From Patescibacteria group bacterium (GTDB lineage: Bacteria; Patescibacteriota; Microgenomatia; UBA8517), in assembly GCA_025999275.1 (NCBI GenBank), contig AP024680.1:419578-483577 (forward strand): 64,000 nt of DNA. The letters are read 5' to 3'. Within the stretch, counting starts at the first letter, position 1. The number at the start of each line of letters is the position of its first letter. The translations under genes and the position numbers were made by a program. Shown here one piece after another: positions 8,327 through 47,163 of the stretch. Under the pieces are notes generated by a model, which worked only from the letters and a program-made list of their open reading frames with translations, had not been told where the DNA came from and did no database searches.

Positions 8327-9517
8327 ATGATAAATCTTATTAAAAGAATTTCTATATCTGAATTGCTGGTGGTGGTTTTTTTATTTACACTGCATCTTTT
8401 TTTTGTTTTTTTTACTAAATCTAATCTTGGTTTTATAACACTTTTTCCTAAAAACCTTTTCCTCTTTCAGTTATTGGAGATAAGCTTTTCTAATCCCTCC
8501 TTTTTTATCTATATTGTTAGCTTTTTGAATTTTTTATTGATTTTTTGGTTGGCTAATATCTTTTTTGGTAAATCGGGCTTTTTATATCCCTTGATTGTTT
8601 ATTCATTTTCTCCTTGGATTTTTTATTCTGTTGCTTTTAATTCTCATTATGTTTTTTTGCTATTTATAGTTTTGCTTATTATAAGTGGAATTGTGTTTGT
8701 TGAAAAAGGAAAAAGAGGGGCTTTGTTCTTGCTTTTCTTTGCCATTTTTTTAGGTATGGTGAGCGATTTCTTTCTGTTTTTCCTAATTCCTGTTTTCTTT
8801 ATTTTGTATTTAATAATTTTTGGCAGTGAGTCTGTAAGAAAATTTATTTATCCCACAGTTTTCTCACTTTTTGTTTTATTTGTTTTCCTTTTTTTCTTCT
8901 TGTTTAAATTGAGACCCGGTTTTTTTGCAATTGCAGCCAATGAATTTGGAATTTTTGACGATCCTGGTTTTATGAATATGGTAAATACCTATAGGGGAGA
9001 ATCTTCACAAGAAGGTTTTGTTTTCCTGTCTCGTCTTGTTGAAAATAAGTATTTTCTCGGCCTTGAATTTTTAATTCTTAGGTTTCTAAGTTTTATAACA
9101 CCAGCTACTTATTTTACATCGCAAGAGAGGTTTTTTGGTTTTTCTTTCAGTCCACCTATCTTTATTGGTTTTCTGATTCCCTTTTTGTATGGTCTTTACA
9201 GACTTATTTCTGATAAAAAAGCTAGAAAATTTTTGTTTTTGAGTCTTATTTTAATTCTTCCTTCTTTTTTTTCTTCTTTATCAATCAACCTTTCTCGTTT
9301 GATTATTTTTTCTCCTATTATAATTTTTGCAATTTCTTATGGTTTTATTGGCTTATTAAATTTTAAGAAAAGTAAAGCACCAGTTGTCCTGGTTTGGATT
9401 AGTATTTTTCTTCTTATTTTTCAATTGTTTTTGACTGTTTATGATATTAAGTTAAAAGAAAAGGAGAGGTTTTTAAGGTACTATAACTTTGATAGCAGTT
9501 ATAAAATCAAAATATGA
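8327..9517 (+). CDS. polytopic integral membrane protein, function unknown
   Basis: 396 aa, almost entirely hydrophobic helices; embedded in glycosylation operon. Confidence 0.5.
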   Translation: MINLIKRISISELLVVVFLFTLHLFFVFFTKSNLGFITLFPKNLFLFQLLEISFSNPSFFIYIVSFLNFLLIFWLANIFFGKSGFLYPLIVYSFSPWIFYSVAFNSHYVFLLFIVLLIISGIVFVEKGKRGALFLLFFAIFLGMVSDFFLFFLIPVFFILYLIIFGSESVRKFIYPTVFSLFVLFVFLFFFLFKLRPGFFAIAANEFGIFDDPGFMNMVNTYRGESSQEGFVFLSRLVENKYFLGLEFLILRFLSFITPATYFTSQERFFGFSFSPPIFIGFLIPFLYGLYRLISDKKARKFLFLSLILILPSFFSSLSINLSRLIIFSPIIIFAISYGFIGLLNFKKSKAPVVLVWISIFLLIFQLFLTVYDIKLKEKERFLRYYNFDSSYKIKI

Positions 9518-11158
9518 AGATTAAAAAAAGAACGACCTTAATATTACTGGCTATAACTTTGATCGCTGCTTTTTTAAGATTTTACAAAATAGATAGAAAT
9601 CCTCCTAGTTTGACTGGTGATGAAATTTCTTTTGGCTATGCAGCTTACTCTATTTTGAAAACTGGTAGAGATGAATCTGGAAGATTCTTGCCACTTGTAA
9701 TTCAATCAATTGGTGATTACAAAAATCCTTTGCCAGCATATTTGATGGTTGTATCATTTAAATTTTTTGGAGTGAATGATTTTGCAGTTAGATTCCAGAA
9801 TGCACTTTTTGGGACATTAACAGTTTTTGTTTTTTTCTTTTTTCTTTTTTATCTCTTAAAGAATGATAAGCAAGCTTTATTGGGTAGTTTCTTTTTGGCT
9901 TTATCTCCATGGCATATTTTTTATTCTCGTTTTGCTTACGAACCATTGATTGCTAGTTTTTTTTGCTCTTTTAGGTATATGGTCTTTTATGAAGATGCTT
10001 GATAGCAAAAGCGTTAAATTTGCCTTCCTATCATCATTTTTTTTGATTCTAACCATGTATACAGGTTTTGCTCAAAGGTTATTTGTACCTGTTTTCTTCT
10101 TCTTTCTTGTTTTGTTTAATTTAAGAAAGTTGTTTAAGGTTAAAAAGATATTTTTAATTTTTTCTTTTTTATCATTCTTGTTTGTTTTGCCGCTAATCTA
10201 TGTCTCCTTATTTCAAGGAGCATCTACTAGATTTAAAATGGTTTTTATAGCTAATGATATAAATTATGTTCGTTATGTTATTTTTGGTTATGCAAGCCGT
10301 TTTATTGACTATTGTTATCTTTTCTTCTTCTGGATTAAAAGATATTTAAATTATTTACAACCTAGGTTTCTATTTTCAGATGCTTTGCAGATGGTTTTAC
10401 CAGGAAATATTGGATTAGGAATTTTATATCCTTTTGAGGGTTTGTTTTTGGTTTTTGGCATATTTGAGCTTATAAAAAGAAGAATTTTACATAAGGATAT
10501 GCTTTTAATTTGGCTTTTTACCGGTATAGTTCCTGATTCTATAACAAACAATGAGCAACATGCGGGTAGACTTCTTCATATAGCTCCACTTATATTTACT
10601 ATTACCACCTTAGGAGCAGTAAGTTTATGGCGTCTTTTAAATAAAAAAGTTAAGGGTATTAAAAGTTTTTTTATTTTATCTGTTCTTGTTGCCTTTTCTG
10701 TTTTAAATATTCTGTTTGCTTGGCTCTTGTTTAGAGTTCATTTTCCTTATCAAAAGAGTGAAGCTTTTGATGAGGGTTGGAGAGAAGTTGTTTATTCGGT
10801 AATGAAATATCAGGATAATTATGAAAAGATTATCTTTGATATCAGAAGGGGTGTTGATGGCCCATATATGGTGAGCAATCCTCATATGTATTTGTTGTTT
10901 TACTCCAAATATGATCCATCCAAATATCAAACAATAAAGAAAGTATTTAATGTGTATGGTGATAGTGAACCTTACTTTGCTTTTGATAAATATTCTTTTG
11001 GGTATATTAATTGGTACAGAGATTCTAAATATAAAAATACTCTTTTGGTAGGCAGTCCTTGGAGTTTCCCTAAGGAGGAAGATTTGGGAAATAAATTGAT
11101 TGAAAAGATTTATCTTTCGAACGGCAAACCCGCTTTTTATCTAGTTTCCACTGAATAG
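9514..11158 (+). pseudogene. GT-C PMT/ArnT-like paralog 4, interrupted by +1 frameshift inside a T8 homopolymer (9957-9964)
   Basis: ORF 9514-10002 carries the N-terminal 'RFYKIDRNPPSLTGDEISFGYAAYSILKTGRDE' motif and ends 'ASFFCSF...'; ORF 9950-11158 (TTG start in track) continues the paralog alignment ('ALLGIWSFMKMLDSK' matches 'FALMWVILGMIYLVKGF' of paralog 1); removing one T from the T8 run fuses the two into a single ORF of about 565 aa. Confidence 0.7.
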
Positions 11159-11164
11159 TTGCTA

Positions 11165-11188
11165 CTTTAAGGGAGCCTCCTTTAAAGG
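11165..11188. repeat. palindromic REP-like motif copy A (inverted orientation), between convergent gene ends
   Basis: CTTTAAGGGAGCCTCCTTTAAAGG; reverse complement shares the 17-nt core with copies at 11679 and 11897; may also act as bidirectional terminator. Confidence 0.7.
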
Positions 11189-11881
11189 TTAAGTGAGATC
11201 ATTATCTTCGATTATTAATTTTTTAATTTTTTGGGTGTTTAATGAATATCTTTCTACAAAGTCTTTATAGTTGTTTATCTTCTTGAATTCGGGTGCTGTG
11301 GGTTTATTAAAAACTTGTAGTATGATATTCGGATTTATCCAAGCTGTTTTGCGTATTCCTAGATACTCTGCGTAGGAGGAGTAAGAATCTACTAGATTGT
11401 TAGCATACTCTTTGGGGTTTAGGTGGATATATCGTGACAAGTGAATTAATTGCTCATCGTTTTTAACAATAACTGCTTTATAATGCCCCTGGAATAGTTT
11501 TCCAACACGCTTATACTTTTTATTGAAATACATAGAATATCTGGTGGAAATTGACCTCATAAAACTTTCCATACCATTTTTGTTTTCTTGCTTTATTAGT
11601 AAATGGAAATGATTTGGCATTAGACAGTAGGCAATTAATTCTATTTCTTTGTTGTAATTTTTAGGTTGTCTGGGTACACCTTTAAAGGAGGCTCCTTTTA
11701 AGGTAAAAGTTTTTCTAATATCATCTGGTTTGGGAGGGGGCAGTAAGGCTTGCTTTAGATAGTTTAAGAATACTTTATAATCTTGGGAATCAAGGAAAAT
11801 TTTTCTTTTTTCAACACCCCTATTGTAAATGTGGTAGTAACCTTGCTCAAAGTATATTTTAATGGAGTTCTTTTGAGGCAT
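11189..11881 (-). CDS. IS200-like / REP-associated tyrosine transposase (HuH Y1 transposase, PF01797-like)
   Basis: 'YYHIYNRGVEKRKIF' N-terminus, HuH motif 'LMPNHFHLLI', catalytic-Tyr motif 'RYIHLNPKEY' - all hallmarks of TnpA(IS200)/RayT. Confidence 0.8.
   Translation of the reverse strand: MPQKNSIKIYFEQGYYHIYNRGVEKRKIFLDSQDYKVFLNYLKQALLPPPKPDDIRKTFTLKGASFKGVPRQPKNYNKEIELIAYCLMPNHFHLLIKQENKNGMESFMRSISTRYSMYFNKKYKRVGKLFQGHYKAVIVKNDEQLIHLSRYIHLNPKEYANNLVDSYSSYAEYLGIRKTAWINPNIILQVFNKPTAPEFKKINNYKDFVERYSLNTQKIKKLIIEDNDLT
11679..11703. repeat. palindromic REP-like motif copy B, located inside the transposase CDS
   Basis: CCTTTAAAGGAGGCTCCTTTTAAGG; encodes the in-frame segment '...LKGASFKGVPRQ...' of the transposase. 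Confidence 0.7.
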
Positions 11882-11896
11882 ATTTGCATTATTATA

Positions 11897-11920
11897 CCTT
11901 TAAAGGAGGCTCCTTGGAAG
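11897..11920. repeat. palindromic REP-like motif copy C, upstream of transposase start
   Basis: CCTTTAAAGGAGGCTCCTTGGAAG. Confidence 0.7.
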
Positions 11921-11958
11921 TGTGAGAAGATTTTTAGATTTTTTGATAAACTTATACT

Positions 11959-12705
11959 ATGGAACTTTTGGGTAAAAATGTTGTTATACTCGGGGCGACA
12001 GGGGGAATAGGAAGATCCCTCGCCTTTGCTTTTGCAGCTAAAGGCGCCAATCTTATCTTGACTGGTAGGAGAAAGAGAATTCTTGATGCGCTTTCAAAAG
12101 AAATTCGTAAATTTTCTGTTTCAGTTGATACTTTTACTCTTGATGTCACAAAAGAAAAAGAATGGAGGCCTTTTATAAGAAAGGTGGAAAGTAAATTTGG
12201 CCATATTGATATTTTAATTAATTCTTTTGGCGTTGGTATTTATAAAAAACTCAAAGATTTAGAGATAGAGGATTTTAAAAAGTCCATTGATGTTAATTTA
12301 AACTCTGTCTTTTTGTCGATTAAGAATTTTTTGCCGCTTCTTGAAAAATCTCATAAAGCCTATGTTTTGAGTCTTGGTTCTGGTATGGGTAAAATTGGCG
12401 TCTCAGGCAGGTCTTCTTATTGCGCTAGCAAGTTTGGATTAAGGGGGTTAATGCTTTCTCTTGCTAAGGAGTATAAAAGTACTAATATTAATTTCTGTCT
12501 TTTGACCTTAGGTAGCGTTCTGACAGCGTTTGGACCTTTAAGTCTTGAGGAAAAAATAGAAAAGCAAAAGAAGGGGAAGGGATATCTTGATCCAGTAAGC
12601 CTTGCCAAGGCTATAGCTTCAAAGATAGAAAATGAAACATTAGAAGAAGAAGTCTCTATTTATCCGTCTAGGTATTTTAAGGAATCTAAAAGTGGTGTTG
12701 TTTGA
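11959..12705 (+). CDS. short-chain dehydrogenase/reductase (classical SDR)
   Basis: 'VVILGATGGIGRSLA' TGxxxGxG NAD(P)-binding motif and 'YCASKFGLRG' YxxxK catalytic motif. Confidence 0.85.
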   Translation: MELLGKNVVILGATGGIGRSLAFAFAAKGANLILTGRRKRILDALSKEIRKFSVSVDTFTLDVTKEKEWRPFIRKVESKFGHIDILINSFGVGIYKKLKDLEIEDFKKSIDVNLNSVFLSIKNFLPLLEKSHKAYVLSLGSGMGKIGVSGRSSYCASKFGLRGLMLSLAKEYKSTNINFCLLTLGSVLTAFGPLSLEEKIEKQKKGKGYLDPVSLAKAIASKIENETLEEEVSIYPSRYFKESKSGVV

Positions 12706-14974
12706 TTTTTGTCTTTCTTGCTTCTATGGCTAGTATTAAAAACCAAATTACAAATGATATTCCTGATATTTTTTTCCCTAGTTGAAACATCTTTGGATAA
12801 TAATAAAATCTGATTATTCCTTTTCCTTCTGGAACTTCTACAGATCTAAATACTTCTAAGTATTTTTTGATAGGTACATCCTTGTTGTTTAACTGAGCTT
12901 TCCAGTCATTTGTATAAGTATCAGTTAGTATAAGATTTCCTTTTTCTGGAGTTGAAAATTCGATAAAAACTTCGTTTGGGGAGTATTTTACAATTTTTGC
13001 TTCTCCAACTATTTCTCCTTTATCACTTTCTATTCTTACTCTTTCTTTATATTTAGTGTTTTCTAAGATGTATACTGATCCGTATTCGTATACTTTTTGC
13101 CAGTCTCTTAAATTTATTGCCCAATAGGTATGCTTTCCTTCTTTGTCTATATTTGTATCGTTAGAGTATTTAAGAGCCAGTAGATATTTGACTGACAATT
13201 TTCCAAGCATATCTGCATCGTAGTTTGATGACAAATTTGAGTATCTGGAAAGAAATTTCAAATTTTGTTTTGATATCTGCTTTTGATAGAAAGCGACATA
13301 TTCCTTTAGAGCTAGAGGGTCATACCCCGATAAACTGTATAGTCTGTAGAAAGCCCATGTGTTTGGTGGTAGCAATGGCCCTCTTTCACTTTCTACTCTA
13401 GCTAGATTAGCATTTTCTTTGAGATAGTTGATTATTTCTGTATTTGGGTATGCAAATTTATTAGGTGTAAATGGTAGATATTTCCAATTGTAATAAAAAA
13501 GTTCAAATATTGTTACAATAACTATTGATATAGTAAGCAATTTATTTTTTTTGTTGAATATTAAAGAAAACACAATTATGGTAAATAGAATTCCTGTTGG
13601 TATTAGTGAGTTCTTTATTGCGATTTTTAGGTGCGATGCAGACTGTTCATTTGATTGATTCAAGAAAAAAATATATGTTACAAACAGCTCTAATATTATT
13701 AGAACTATTGCTAATAAATTTTTTTGAATAAATTTTGATACTTTTGTTTTGCTGTTGTTATCTAGCCATTTTCCTATTAGAACACTTCCACAAAATATAT
13801 AAACAAAACCCATTCTTCCAGCTGCGCTTGTGGTAATTAGGGGGAGTTTTGTTTGGTAAATCATTTTAGATAGAGGATTGTCAAATATGAGTAACAAAGA
13901 TAATAAGCACCATATGGTGAAAAATTTTTCTTCTTTGGAAAGAAGTTTGAAATTTATTATTGACCATATTATTGCGAAGATTCCTACTATTCCAAGATAT
14001 ATTGTCGTTTCATGATAGTTAAAAAAGCCCCAATAATTGCCTGTAACTGGGTTGCCAAAGAAATTTGGGGCTATCAAAGTGGCTAGGTGCCTTAATGGTA
14101 GTAATCCATAGTTGTACATTTGTATATAGTTTTCATTGAAGCGTATAGATTCTGTTAGTTGTTGATATGTTGGTAATACTTGTATTAATAAAGTGCCAAT
14201 TCCTAGAATTTCTACCAACAGGAAGTATGATAGTTTAGAAAGTTTGTTTTTTAAATCTGGGTTAAGAATTTTAAGAAGAAAATAGCTGTTGAATATTATT
14301 AGAGAAAATATAAATGCTTGAAAATGACCCGAAGAACCAAGCAGAAATATTAAAGGAACAGCTAGTAACAAGTATATTTTTTTATTTTTTTCTTCGTATT
14401 GGTTTATAAGTAAGAGAAGCAGAGGCAAATAAATCATAGCAAATCCCAAATTTGCAAATTGCAACCATGTTATGGCGAAAGTTGAAAAGGTGTAACAGAT
14501 AGATCCAAGAATGGCAGGTAATTGGGATATTCTAAGTGATCTAAGGAAAAAGTACATAGATATTATAGAACCAATACTTTGAGAAATTATCATTAGGTTC
14601 CATCCTTTTAGATCTCCAAGAAATATTTGAAATAGGTTGAATGGATTTAGGGCTCCTGATTGAAAATTAGCCAATAGGGGGATTCCTGCATATTCATATG
14701 GGTTCCAAAGAGGCCACTGAAAGTTTCTATAAGATTCAGCAATCAATGACTTCCATATAAATATTTGAGAAAATATGTCAGATATTAAAGGATTTTTTAT
14801 TGGTACTCCTACTATATAGCCCCACTTATAATCTAGCCAAGGATAATATGCTCCAACCAAGAGATCTCCTGGAAATAATATTAGTCCTTTAAATATCGCT
14901 TTCCAGTAAAAAGCTATTACTATCAATATTAGAAGTGAAATAAAAAAAATTTCTTTGGTTTTTATTTTTTTCAC
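12686..14974 (-). CDS. YfhO-family polytopic membrane protein (GT-C-like glycan transferase)
   Basis: 762 aa; N-terminal '...LFPGDLLVGAYYPW', many TM helices, extracytoplasmic domain '...NDWKAQLNNKDVPIKKY...' followed by terminal TM - YfhO architecture; converges on and overlaps SDR gene by 20 nt. Confidence 0.6.
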   Translation of the reverse strand: MKKIKTKEIFFISLLILIVIAFYWKAIFKGLILFPGDLLVGAYYPWLDYKWGYIVGVPIKNPLISDIFSQIFIWKSLIAESYRNFQWPLWNPYEYAGIPLLANFQSGALNPFNLFQIFLGDLKGWNLMIISQSIGSIISMYFFLRSLRISQLPAILGSICYTFSTFAITWLQFANLGFAMIYLPLLLLLINQYEEKNKKIYLLLAVPLIFLLGSSGHFQAFIFSLIIFNSYFLLKILNPDLKNKLSKLSYFLLVEILGIGTLLIQVLPTYQQLTESIRFNENYIQMYNYGLLPLRHLATLIAPNFFGNPVTGNYWGFFNYHETTIYLGIVGIFAIIWSIINFKLLSKEEKFFTIWCLLSLLLIFDNPLSKMIYQTKLPLITTSAAGRMGFVYIFCGSVLIGKWLDNNSKTKVSKFIQKNLLAIVLIILELFVTYIFFLNQSNEQSASHLKIAIKNSLIPTGILFTIIVFSLIFNKKNKLLTISIVIVTIFELFYYNWKYLPFTPNKFAYPNTEIINYLKENANLARVESERGPLLPPNTWAFYRLYSLSGYDPLALKEYVAFYQKQISKQNLKFLSRYSNLSSNYDADMLGKLSVKYLLALKYSNDTNIDKEGKHTYWAINLRDWQKVYEYGSVYILENTKYKERVRIESDKGEIVGEAKIVKYSPNEVFIEFSTPEKGNLILTDTYTNDWKAQLNNKDVPIKKYLEVFRSVEVPEGKGIIRFYYYPKMFQLGKKISGISFVIWFLILAIEARKTKIKQHHF

Positions 14975-44917: not shown

Positions 44918-45763
44918 ATGTCTAATTCTATCTTTGCTCATACCCTAGTAAGAAATGAGGAGCGGTATTTGTGGTTTGCTATTTCTTCAGTCGTTGATTA
45001 TGTTGATAGGGTTTTTCTTTGGGATACTGGAAGCACGGATAAAAGCCTTGAGATAGAAAAGGAAATAAAAAAGAAGTGGCCTGGGAAAATTGACTTAAGA
45101 CAAATTGGGGAAGTTGATGCAAATGAGTTTACCAGTGTCAGGCAAAAAATGCTTGATCAATCAGATTGTGATTGGGTAATGATTTTGGATGGTGATGAAG
45201 TTTGGTGGAAAGATTCAATAAAAAGAGCGATTGATCTTATAAATGAGAAGGGAAACGAGTTGGATTCTTTGGTTCACAGATACTACAACTTAGTGGGGGA
45301 TATATTTCATTATCAGGAAGAGAAAGCGGGACGTTATGTTATTGACGGCAAGCAGGGAAATTTAACTGTTAGGTTTTTTAGGCGAAATATTCCTGGTATT
45401 CATTTTGACAATCCTCATGGGACTCAGGGTTTGTTTGATAAAGATGGAGTTTTAATTCAGGAAAGAGATCCAAAAAGGAGGTTCCATTTGGATGATTATT
45501 ATCTCCACTTTACCCATCTTGTTCGCTCAACTAGCCTTATCGAAGACAAAAAAGTGATTAAGAGAAATTTAAAGTACAAATATGAGCTAGGTATTCCTTT
45601 TCCTTTAGATTTTTATTATCCAGAAGCGTTTTTTAAAGATAGGCCAGATATTGTTGAAAGTCCTTGGAGAGTAATGGATGCTTCGTTTAGGATTAGATCA
45701 TTTTTTGAAACTCCATTAAGGAAGATAAAAAGGAGGATTTGGTGGGGGAAGACTGGTTATTAG
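44918..45763 (+). CDS. putative GT-A-like glycosyltransferase (GT2/GT92-like), low confidence
   Basis: 'HTLVRNEERYLWFAISSV...FLWDTGSTDKS...VMILDGDEVWW'. Confidence 0.4.
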   Translation: MSNSIFAHTLVRNEERYLWFAISSVVDYVDRVFLWDTGSTDKSLEIEKEIKKKWPGKIDLRQIGEVDANEFTSVRQKMLDQSDCDWVMILDGDEVWWKDSIKRAIDLINEKGNELDSLVHRYYNLVGDIFHYQEEKAGRYVIDGKQGNLTVRFFRRNIPGIHFDNPHGTQGLFDKDGVLIQERDPKRRFHLDDYYLHFTHLVRSTSLIEDKKVIKRNLKYKYELGIPFPLDFYYPEAFFKDRPDIVESPWRVMDASFRIRSFFETPLRKIKRRIWWGKTGY

Positions 45764-45792
45764 ATTGTAGGCAAGAGTTTCAAGTTATAAAA

Positions 45793-47163
45793 ATGTTAGA
45801 AAAATCAGAATATACAAAAATAAATAAACGAGATGGCATTTTACTTATTGGCATTTTAGCCTTTCAGTTGTTTTTTCTTTTTAATCTTAAATTTACAGCT
45901 TGGCCGGAAATGTTAGCATGGCCTTATTTGATGATTAAGGGCTGGATGCCATATAGGGATATTGCCATAGCTCATAACCCATTATTGCTTGTTGACTTGG
46001 CAATCTTTTATAAATTTTTTGGGGTAGGCGTTTGGCAGTTAAAATTTTTTACTTGGCTCTTGATTATCTTGTCTGAGATGGTCTTGTTTTTAATTGCAAA
46101 GGAAATTTGGGGCAGGAAAGTTGCGTTGTGGTCGGTCTTGTTTTACAGCTTTTGGGTTATCTTTTATGAAGGTAATGGAATTTGGTTTGATTTTTATATG
46201 GGCATTTTGGCCTTTATTTCTTTTTACCTTGTTTATAAGAAGGATTGGTTTCTGGCGGGTGTTTTTTGGTCTTTGGCTTTTTTGTCAAAGCAAACGGCTA
46301 TTTGGTTCTTGTTCCCAATCCTGTTTGAGATTATTGTGCGACCACCTTTAAAGATTGAATCTTTAAAGATGGTTTTTGGGGCAGGTGCTGTCTTGAGTAT
46401 ATTTTTGTTTTTGCTTTGGAAATTGGGTATTTTGTTTTATTGGTGGAATTGGGCGGTTAATTTTGGGGTTTTTGTTCTTCCAAAATCAACAGGCCAAATA
46501 AAATTGCCAGGTTTTTCAGAGCTTTTTGTTTCTCTTTTTCCATTTTTTGTGTTTTTACTTTTATTCCTAAATCATAAATCTAAATTGTTAAATCTATTTC
46601 TTTGGTCTTTGGCTGGTATTCTTGGTGCCTATCCGCGTTTTGAATATTTTCATTTTCAGCCTGCAATTTTTTATCTTTCGATTGCCGCAGCTCTTGTTTT
46701 TTCGGATTTTAAAAAGATAAGTAAGATTGGGCAGATGTTTTTGATATTTTTTGTTTTGGGCAATACATTTTTGTTTGCAAGATTTTTGGAAAGGAATTTT
46801 AACAAAGAAACTAGATTTTATGAATCTGATTTTAGAAAGGTAATTGATTATGTTAGGGAAGAAACTAAACCTGGTGATTATATTTTTGTTTTGAATTGGT
46901 GGGATAGTCTTTATGCTTTAACTGAGACTATACCAGCAACAAAGCCATTAGTTCCTCAACTTGCCTGGTATCAAGAGTTTGATAAGATTCAGAAAAAAGA
47001 AGTAGAAGACATTGCTTCTATAAGGCCAAAACTTGTAGTTCTTAATTCTTATACGGATAGCGGCCTTTCTTCTTATATTCCCAAAGAGCTTTATAATTAT
47101 ATTGATAAAAACTACATTATGGTAGACGAAATTGGGGATGTAAAAATATTAAATCTAAGATAA
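45793..47163 (+). CDS. polytopic membrane protein, GT-C-like (DUF2029/GT87-like)
   Basis: 'WPEMLAWPYLMIKGWMPYRDIAIAHNPLLL'; start at internal ATG 45793. Confidence 0.45.
   Translation: MLEKSEYTKINKRDGILLIGILAFQLFFLFNLKFTAWPEMLAWPYLMIKGWMPYRDIAIAHNPLLLVDLAIFYKFFGVGVWQLKFFTWLLIILSEMVLFLIAKEIWGRKVALWSVLFYSFWVIFYEGNGIWFDFYMGILAFISFYLVYKKDWFLAGVFWSLAFLSKQTAIWFLFPILFEIIVRPPLKIESLKMVFGAGAVLSIFLFLLWKLGILFYWWNWAVNFGVFVLPKSTGQIKLPGFSELFVSLFPFFVFLLLFLNHKSKLLNLFLWSLAGILGAYPRFEYFHFQPAIFYLSIAAALVFSDFKKISKIGQMFLIFFVLGNTFLFARFLERNFNKETRFYESDFRKVIDYVREETKPGDYIFVLNWWDSLYALTETIPATKPLVPQLAWYQEFDKIQKKEVEDIASIRPKLVVLNSYTDSGLSSYIPKELYNYIDKNYIMVDEIGDVKILNLR

Follow-up and report, generated by a model that had tools for sequence, protein, structure and literature searches.

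A RAYT-like Y1 HUH nuclease gene of a Patescibacteria bacterium with copies of its palindrome upstream, in frame and at the stop codon

A 64-kb stretch of DNA from a Patescibacteria group bacterium (contig AP024680.1; GC content 31.4%), referred to below as the window, contains a gene for a Y1 HUH nuclease of 230 amino acids, similar to the REP-associated tyrosine transposases (RAYT; REP, repetitive extragenic palindrome) and to the TIRYT proteins. The gene (11189..11881, minus strand), defined from its open reading frame (ORF), Pfam, AlphaFold2 (AF2) and Foldseek results and a family alignment, is associated with three copies of one short palindrome at ~11164-11921: one upstream, over a putative promoter, one in frame inside the coding sequence (CDS), and one at the stop codon. 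We consider it moderately probable that this locus is a REPtron-like module, in which a Y1 nuclease of the RAYT/TIRYT class recognises its cognate palindrome and cuts and rejoins DNA beside it, and in which the copies are kept in concert. The nuclease of the locus is probably single-copy and domesticated. The system extends the known REP/RAYT category, leaving the category itself unchanged, and is not a one-off oddity. What deserves attention is the host range in the candidate phyla radiation (CPR), the fixed triad with concerted evolution that reaches into the CDS, and the embedding of one copy in a promoter.

The protein has the HUH motif NHFH at residues 90-93 and the motif YIHLNP at residues 151-156, with Y151 as the catalytic tyrosine, followed by N155 and P156, and a C-terminal tail containing YSSY. 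Pfam Y1_Tnp (PF01797) matches residues 77-153 (E=1.2e-12; 48.5 bits against a cut-off of 23). The best NCBIfam match is the equivalog model NF047646 (REP_Tyr_transpos, REP-associated tyrosine transposase), and with the NCBIfam IS200 model the protein scores 16.9 against a cut-off of 55, clearly not an IS200 protein. An AF2 model built from a shallow alignment of 21 homologues (pLDDT 78.5, pTM 0.78) was compared with known structures by Foldseek. The top match was TnpA-REP of Escherichia coli bound to a REP hairpin (PDB 4ER8, chain 4er8_A; E=4.4e-6), followed by the TnpA proteins of IS608 and ISDra2 (2VIC, 2A6O, 2XO6). A single-sequence phmmer search against the PDB gave only a spurious BspA match, and a profile of 21 sequences gave weak matches to ISDra2 over the HUH strand only and did not reach 4ER8; structure prediction and Foldseek were therefore needed to find it. 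An earlier note, made by reading the DNA sequence, had described an IS200/RayT-like HuH protein with NHFH and YIHLNP, and the Y1 HUH transposase-like nature of the protein is supported by both the Pfam match and the structural match.

Among 62 family members, H91, H93 and Y151 are invariant, as is S169 in the tail. Position 155 is occupied by asparagine in 53 and by glutamine in nine of these proteins, and P156 is present in 50. As judged from sequence and model, the HUH motif, the single tyrosine, the polar ligand four residues further on and the IS200-like fold place the protein in the Y1 HUH endonuclease superfamily. It looks like an active HUH enzyme under purifying selection.

The 17-mer CCTTTAAAGGAGGCTCC occurs in exactly three exact copies in the window, at 11172-11188 (minus strand), 11679-11695 (plus strand) and 11897-11913 (plus strand), and the 64 kb contain no fourth copy at up to three mismatches. 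By chance, 0.24 matches are expected, and none of 100 shuffled sequences reached five matches. Each 17-mer sits in an imperfect palindrome of 25-27 nt (11164-11189, 11678-11704 and 11896-11921). Read in the orientation of the gene, the upstream and internal copies share one direction, with the centre GAGCCTC, and the downstream copy runs the opposite way (GAGGCTC). The upstream palindrome (11896..11921; ACTTCCAAGGAGCCTCCTTTAAAGGT in gene orientation), found by repeat and palindrome scans, covers a -35-like hexamer and a 17-nt spacer, and a perfect -10 box, TATAAT (11891..11896, minus strand), read directly from the sequence, lies immediately 3' of it. The intragenic palindrome, here called site A (11678..11704), was identified by repeat, palindrome and folding analyses; it is 27 nt long with 12 of 13 positions paired and is read in frame as T60-G68 (TLKGASFKG), a segment that connects helix alpha-A to the HUH strand. 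The downstream palindrome (11164..11189), which was found in the same scans as the upstream one, begins at the last base of the TAA stop codon. The earlier note had placed a 17-nt core at both gene ends in opposite orientation and a third, in-frame copy within the transposase gene; both statements hold when checked by exact matching, the palindrome scan and the reading frame.

Folded as single-stranded DNA (ssDNA), the three hairpins have energies of -3 to -7.6 kcal/mol (z -0.4 to -2.1), two of the three being not significantly better than shuffled sequences; as RNA, the internal copy folds with -11.4 kcal/mol. The hairpins of the three motif copies are thus predicted to be only modestly stable, and for this reason the case for the feature is built on repetition and conservation, with folding energy left out of the count. 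A search of the whole 64 kb with Rfam at the gathering threshold found no RNA family, hence none at the palindromes, and ARAGORN found no tRNA gene in the same sequence. The possibility that the 3' copy is a simple terminator was rejected, as a consensus promoter/terminator scan called no intrinsic terminator at this palindrome.

The same architecture is the norm in the family. The family comprises at least 7,972 proteins at 90% clustering, of which the named members belong to Candidatus Woesebacteria and other Patescibacteria, and there are at least ~600 matches in the species genomes of GTDB. From these genomes 80 homologous loci were taken; the gene was callable in 64, and 57 were used for a test of the upstream core. 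The loci are contigs of metagenome-assembled genomes and of metagenomes, and some of their taxonomic labels are unreliable. Nearly every locus has its own palindrome, typically CA[AG]GG-N3-5-CC[TC]TG with variable outer arms, with one or two copies ending 2-60 nt before the ATG and one to three copies at 0-60 nt past the stop codon. The flanking copies are often doublets with inverted centres, resembling REPINs. Tight doublets of this kind, 3-5 nt apart (for example AGGGTCAGACCCTtgacAGGGTCTGACCCT), are seen in loci L012, L045, L047, L052, L040, L066, L029 and L031 and look like miniature REPINs; the spacer of such doublets often supplies a TTGACA.

Placed on the protein alignment, the intragenic copies fall at few positions: site A (window residues 52-69), with 15 copies in 13 loci; site B (residues 159-161, directly after YIHLNP), with 25 copies and one more at residue 165; and the extreme C-terminus, with five copies. 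For a test of locus specificity, the hairpin core was defined from the upstream 80 nt alone and up to one mismatch was allowed. The core recurs in the CDS of its own locus in 28 of 57 loci, compared with 3.3% of non-self pairs, and in its own 3' flank in 37 of 57, compared with 2.9% of non-self pairs. The copies are concentrated about 100-fold at the gene (178 within 200 nt versus eight in 298 kb of farther flank, from 58 loci). In one metagenome contig (L102), the Y1 homologue ends exactly before the catalytic tyrosine (...LLHLTR*) and is followed by unrelated sequence, which is either a pseudogene or a rearrangement breakpoint near site B.

Six loci of the subfamily of the window protein were picked by protein similarity only (the window, L173, L175, L176, L177 and L178). 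All six have the triplet, with copies at about -30, at residue 62 and at 5-21 nt past the stop codon (+5 in the window), and in all five related loci mapped, the site A position carries the palindrome specific to that locus. The centre of the triplet differs among them: GAGCCTC in the window and L173, GATCAAC in L175, GGGTTACC in L176 and L178, and GGAACATC in L177. Residues 64-65 of the protein vary with the palindrome centre (AS, ST, LP and TS, and also QA in L001), and the alternative lysine or glutamine at residues 62 and 67 tracks the outer arms, TTTAAA versus TTGCAA. On comparison of these sequences, the three copies evolve in concert, and residues 64-65 follow the centre of the palindrome.

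In the module proposed here, the protein would most likely recognise the palindrome as an ssDNA hairpin and cut and rejoin DNA next to it, in the manner of E. coli TnpA-REP. The copies within one genome would be kept alike while lineages diverge, and such concerted evolution could come about through enzyme-mediated replacement, gene conversion or co-evolution with the specificity of the protein. The in-frame copy would sit in a permissive linker and be translated as a surface beta-hairpin, the third copy would abut the stop codon, and the same enzyme may occasionally seed or maintain a few copies elsewhere, some of them in frame in host-protein loops.

The linker that contains site A bears on how the internal copy is to be understood. 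In the AF2 model, the site A peptide is a beta-hairpin with strands 57-61 and 64-68 (pLDDT of the block ~88). All 20 homologues sampled (62-70% identity over the alignment) keep PPPxPxx..FTL[QK]GxxFKGVPRQPKNY, with G63, F66 and G68 invariant. In the earlier note this segment was taken for a Pro/Lys-rich insertion before the HuH motif. It is not a lineage-private or recent insertion, because all 20 sampled homologues carry it; by this comparison it is an old elaboration of the minimal Y1 core. The statement that a REP-like hairpin inside its own transposase gene is unusual cannot be retained either, given the 28 of 57 loci with an intragenic copy and the precedent in the TnpAY1 subclass 2.4 (RAYT group 4; Cyanobacteria and Bacteroidetes), in which in-frame REPs inside tnpA-REP genes are known between the HuH and tyrosine motifs (PMC6006769).

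It might be argued that the internal copy is a passive passenger, a REP tolerated in a permissive loop and kept similar to the others by gene conversion or re-insertion. In keeping with this, the linker that joins helix alpha-A to the HUH strand varies in length between 5 and 37 amino acids in the wider family, intragenic copies are found at two or three permissive places and not at one, loops of many host proteins tolerate the same element, and subclass 2.4 offers a published precedent (PMC6006769). Most of the data agree with this explanation, which in essence amounts to a sub-variant of the REPtron-like module. Neutrality of the copy appears quite unlikely, because a copy at site A is present in 21 of 21 sequences of the subfamily alignment, the window's included, because it keeps pace with the flanking copies in six of six loci selected by protein, and because the choice of codons at site A fits the stem: TTT is used in 9/9 sequences against a background of 0.65, GGT in 8/9 against 0.44, and xCC at residue 65 in 9/9. 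This synonymous-codon test is a weak one (n=9, in AT-rich genomes), so that it gives a faint indication of constraint at the level of DNA. Part of the apparent conservation of amino acids at site A probably reflects such a constraint.

A more far-reaching explanation takes the intragenic palindromes to be functional in cis, as parts of a self-referential HUH module, near-ubiquitous in Patescibacteria, whose enzyme acts on a fixed triad of hairpins at its own promoter, CDS and 3' end. The triad would then serve, for example, replication-coupled nicking, autoregulation, or excision and re-joining of gene segments; the stem would dictate residues 63-68 and the loop would set residues 64-65, and the dispersed copies and those in host genes would be by-products. 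We regard this as unlikely. If it were true, it would give the RAYT-class proteins a host-level function in ultra-reduced genomes and would provide a clear natural case of amino-acid conservation imposed by DNA structure.

Returning to the REPtron-like module, copies of the palindrome are also found away from the gene. In the window, a motif search revealed a degenerate copy, ACCACCTTTAAAGATTGAATCTTTAAAGATGGT (46341..46373, plus strand), in frame in a PMT_2-type gene (45739..47163). It encodes RPPLKIESLKM, in a loop of variable length of this membrane glycosyltransferase. The orthologous site of a relative (L179) holds the canonical core AAGGAGGCTCCTT, and among 120 PMT_2 homologues some lineages have PLKxxPxK-type inserts of various centres in the loop and others have none. 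In the genome of a relative whose Y1 protein (P0005) is 70% identical to that of the window, the triplet is accompanied by an intergenic copy 6.7 kb away and an in-frame PMT_2 copy, and all of these share the core AAGGAG[GC]CTCCTT.

An exact 17-mer scan of public metagenome contigs, which is biased to copies that retain the exact 17-mer, found 91 loci. Some 48 of the 91 matches have a high GC content and no extension of the palindrome, and they were treated as chance matches. The extended 27-nt unit is present in 43 loci, 34 of which have no Y1 gene nearby. A Y1 homologue (43-71% identity) is carried by nine of the 91 loci, seven of them with two or three exact copies, and where all three copies are held the layout is the same as in the window. 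Most of the 34 Y1-free copies lie in frame within long ORFs. Reading of the translations assigns the host ORFs to RNase HII, a Y-family polymerase (DinB), LeuRS, ArgRS, UvrC, RarA, FolD, Fmt, transketolase, an M16 peptidase and glycosyltransferases, of which a database match confirmed only RNase HII and FolD. Comparison of RNase HII with the solved Thermotoga enzyme (PDB 3o3g) shows the element as a 9-amino-acid insertion, after which comes a further gap of 5 amino acids. The FolD copy makes no net change in length relative to solved FolD structures, so not every copy in a host gene can be called an insertion.

The 27-nt element occurs at the same host site in diverged contigs for RNase HII (L090, L101 and L137), the Y-family polymerase (L105, L141 and L169), LeuRS (L167 and L171) and ArgRS (L130 and L166). 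The two LeuRS contigs carry the element in opposite orientations, encoding TLQGASFKG and TFKGGSLKG. These shared sites suggest either persistence of the element with flipping of its centre or repeated insertion at hot spots. Relatives have approximately one dispersed copy per 40-150 kb, and the 20-kb loci of five relatives contain one far copy in total; we estimate 5-30 dispersed copies per ~1-Mb genome. These comparisons show a real but sparse dispersal away from the gene, coding sequences included. The search for further motif copies thus had a divided outcome, with no additional canonical copy in the window but one degenerate copy there and dispersed copies in relatives and metagenomes. In a separate metagenome contig of 1104 nt (L157), the 5' part of a PMT_2 orthologue ends at a canonical palindrome, directly followed by an orthologue of the SDR gene that adjoins the Y1 gene in the window (the junction was compared with window positions 45739-46373 and 11921-12350). 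This junction may have arisen by recombination, as a circle or tandem duplication between palindrome copies, or by chimeric assembly.

The upstream copy overlaps a candidate promoter. In the window, this consists of TTCCAA (11914-11919), a spacer of 17 nt and TATAAT, and the end of the -10 box is 9 nt from the ATG. A Shine-Dalgarno sequence is absent from this short interval, which implies a leaderless or very short-leader mRNA. In many other loci, the upstream palindrome contains or abuts TTGACA or TTGCAA, with a TATAAT-like box 16-18 nt further on that ends 5-12 nt before the ATG. Promoter-like sites, 16 of which overlap the palindrome, are present in 30 of 57 upstream regions, compared with 15 of 236 control windows. 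Binding of the protein to the promoter copy, in the -35 and spacer region, would lead to autoregulation, which on these sequence grounds is a reasonable inference.

These data also raise the question of whether the palindromes form a triad of regulatory operators, bound as double-stranded DNA (dsDNA) by a Y1-derived protein or another dimeric regulator, with autorepression or looping and neither cleavage nor mobility. Several observations would be accounted for: perfect palindromes with a one-base centre form the majority, the upstream copy lies in the -35 and spacer region of many loci and is followed by a -10 box, the copies are concentrated about 100-fold at the gene, and their positions are fixed at about -30, residue 62 and just past the stop codon. 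On the other hand, the HUH histidines and the catalytic tyrosine are invariant in 62 of 62 proteins, and a protein that only binds DNA would not need them. Canonical copies are also present at sites remote from any Y1 gene, some of them in frame in unrelated host genes at positions that resemble insertions, and operators rarely diverge so fast between lineages yet stay identical within a locus. An operator triad is accordingly a distinctly unlikely explanation.

The genomic context of the gene gives a mixed picture as to vertical inheritance. The Y1 gene is single-copy in the window, where its neighbours are a divergent SDR gene and a cluster of PMT and other glycosyltransferase genes. Contig L172, which is 98.8% identical, has the same neighbours, as do relatives with Y1 proteins of 70%, 65% and 64% identity; the SDR/PMT neighbourhood is kept in L172, L173/L174, L176 and L140. 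In L175 and L178, the Y1 gene adjoins the SDR gene on its opposite side, and the context in L177 is unrelated. Genomes with two paralogues (DPYI01, CAYMIA01 and JAJYQQ01) have diverged copies, each with its own palindrome. On the whole, this distribution would fit a mostly vertically inherited, domesticated gene that is occasionally relocated better than an active insertion sequence.

An autonomous insertion sequence of the IS200/IS605 type, consisting of a ~760-bp unit (11164-11921) with the terminal hairpins as its ends and the internal copy as an incidental feature, is thus highly improbable. It would account for the Y1 HUH fold, for the compact unit bounded by hairpins, for the directly oriented ends of L177, L119, L140 and L152, which are as in IS200-type elements, and for the differing position of the gene in some lineages (one gene over in L175 and L178, unrelated in L177). 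However, the gene is single-copy in the window and paralogues within a genome are diverged with a palindrome each, the ends in the window are inverted and not direct, the NCBIfam IS200 score is far below the cut-off (16.9 vs 55), the tyrosine motif is of the class 2, RAYT-like form YxxxNP and not YxxxQ, and the neighbourhood is kept down to ~64-70% protein identity. The TnpA proteins of IS200/IS605 elements (IS608 and ISDra2) share the Y1 HUH fold and probably the recognition of ssDNA hairpins, whereas their size (~130-150 amino acids), YxxxQ motif, multiple near-identical copies and ends in the same orientation are all at variance with the window locus.

The closest known system is the REPtron of E. 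coli TnpA-REP (RayT/YafM; RAYT group 2, TnpAY1 subclass 2.2; PDB 4ER8), whose protein has the same Y1 HUH fold and is the best structural match (comparison based on PMC3333891, PMC3479197 and PMC8266576). E. coli TnpA-REP is also a YxxxNP protein encoded by a single-copy gene with inverted cognate flanking palindromes (REP, or BIME for bacterial interspersed mosaic elements), and its repeats are likewise specific to the gene lineage. In comparison with the REPtron, the palindromes of the window are shorter, AT-richer and nearly perfect, there is a handful of dispersed copies per genome instead of hundreds, and the protein, at 230 amino acids, has an extra linker and a C-terminal tail. The REP arrangement around rayT genes that the earlier note had recognised therefore stands as far as the layout is concerned, but a REP/BIME-like abundance was not seen in the window or in relatives. 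The features shared with RAYT systems are the class 2 YxxxNP motif, as defined in PMC6006769, and the flanking of the gene on both sides by a gene-specific palindrome. Those of canonical RAYT/REP systems that are missing here are the GT[AG]G guide, a high dispersed copy number (typically tens to hundreds per genome) and a score above the cut-off of the curated model.

These differences, with several others, weigh against a REPtron-like module. The score of the protein with the NCBIfam RAYT model is 48.6 bits, below the cut-off of 80. No 5' GT[AG]G guide tetranucleotide is conserved 5' of the stems, the units of which read ACCTT[TG][AC]AAGG-centre-CCTT..AAGGT. The dispersed copy number is very low, and the window itself has no canonical extra copy, so that the activity of the system may be directed mainly at its own locus and not at the spread of a REP population. 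The predicted stabilities of the hairpins are unremarkable, and many palindromes of the family are perfect with a single central base, a form equally typical of the sites of dimeric dsDNA-binding proteins. The orientation of the flanking copies is not fixed among relatives, being mutually inverted in five of the six subfamily loci and direct in L177 and in the metagenome loci L119, L140 and L152. The -35 element of the window matches the consensus at three of six positions, for which reason the consensus promoter scan did not call the promoter. Finally, binding and cleavage of the hairpin by the protein are predictions from homology.

In the TnpAY1 classification, the motifs of the window protein point to another subclass than that of E. 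coli TnpA-REP. The published table for subclass 2.1 gives NH[YF]H, FQ or W[EQ], Y[IV]HLNP, a length of ~238 amino acids and a proximal tail with conserved serines (PMC6006769). The window protein matches this subclass (RAYT group 1, TIRYT) with NHFH, LFQG, YIHLNP, 230 amino acids and YSSY, a placement by motif comparison only and not by phylogeny. No REP-like structures were reported around subclass 2.1 genes (Quentin et al., 2018; PMC6006769), and 16-mers flanking RAYT group 1 genes are only slightly enriched, at ~12 per replicon. Some TIRYT genes (TIRtrons) have flanking self-complementary repeats, which belong to families of moderate abundance (Di Nocera et al., 2013; PMC3733652). In contrast to these, the TIR consensus GGGGWSAS is absent from the window locus, which is flanked by palindromes of the AAGG...CCTT type. 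No Bac_DnaA_C, HTH_23 or HTH_28 domain was found by Pfam in the tail of the window protein at E-values up to 1.

The in-frame copies resemble those of subclass 2.4, where the cognate palindrome likewise lies within the gene in a peripheral variable region with the frame intact, in addition to flanking copies. They differ in position, being before the HUH motif (site A) and after the tyrosine (site B) here, in a protein with the motifs NHFH, FQ and YIHLNP, and the REPs of subclass 2.4 are of the long GTAG or 'double foot' types, unlike those of the window. A further analogy is provided by the Rickettsia palindromic elements (RPEs), RPE-1 being ~100-150 nt long. Like intragenic REPs and the present element, they are inserted in frame in loops of housekeeping proteins, above all those of DNA repair and replication and the aminoacyl-tRNA synthetases. 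To our knowledge, no transposase is known for the RPEs. The present element, by comparison, is ~27 nt long (nine codons), and a cognate Y1 gene bearing the same element is present. Intragenic REPs in repair and tRNA-synthetase genes have been published (Di Nocera et al., 2013; PMC3733652).

RAYT/REP systems have so far been characterised almost entirely in Proteobacteria, Cyanobacteria and Bacteroidetes, and their cellular role is debated. In the literature searched, no description of REP or RAYT in Patescibacteria/CPR was found, which is not proof that none exists. The genomes of Patescibacteria are ~1 Mb in size and poor in mobile DNA, and the module found in them is a stripped-down one, with few dispersed repeats and a fixed triad. 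Cognate hairpins had so far been missing for subclass 2.1 (RAYT group 1), the large motif class into which the protein falls, so that the protein may show what this class recognises. The co-variation of three copies, one of which is coding, constitutes a natural data set for separating the effects of enzyme specificity, gene conversion and selection. In-frame inserts of nine codons, as seen in RNase HII, LeuRS, ArgRS, UvrC, DinB and others, represent lineage-specific loop variation in CPR proteins and can mislead annotation and alignment.

Some minor observations concern the gene neighbourhood. Two ORFs of the window, 9514..10002 (162 amino acids) and 9950..11158 (402 amino acids), correspond to one PMT-family gene of 547 amino acids in L172. 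The PMT ORF is split in the window by a frameshift, one extra A/T in a homopolymer (~9957-9962), which could reflect a phase-variable tract, a pseudogene or an error of assembly. The 13 kb examined (8327-14974 and 45739-47163) hold several ORFs of the PMT/PMT_2 (GT39-like) membrane glycosyltransferase type, and the syntenic clusters of relatives are dominated by PMT/PMT_2 ORFs as well. Small 23S_rRNA_IVP (PF05635) genes recur in the glycosyltransferase clusters near the Y1 gene in the relatives L173, L174, L178 and L179.

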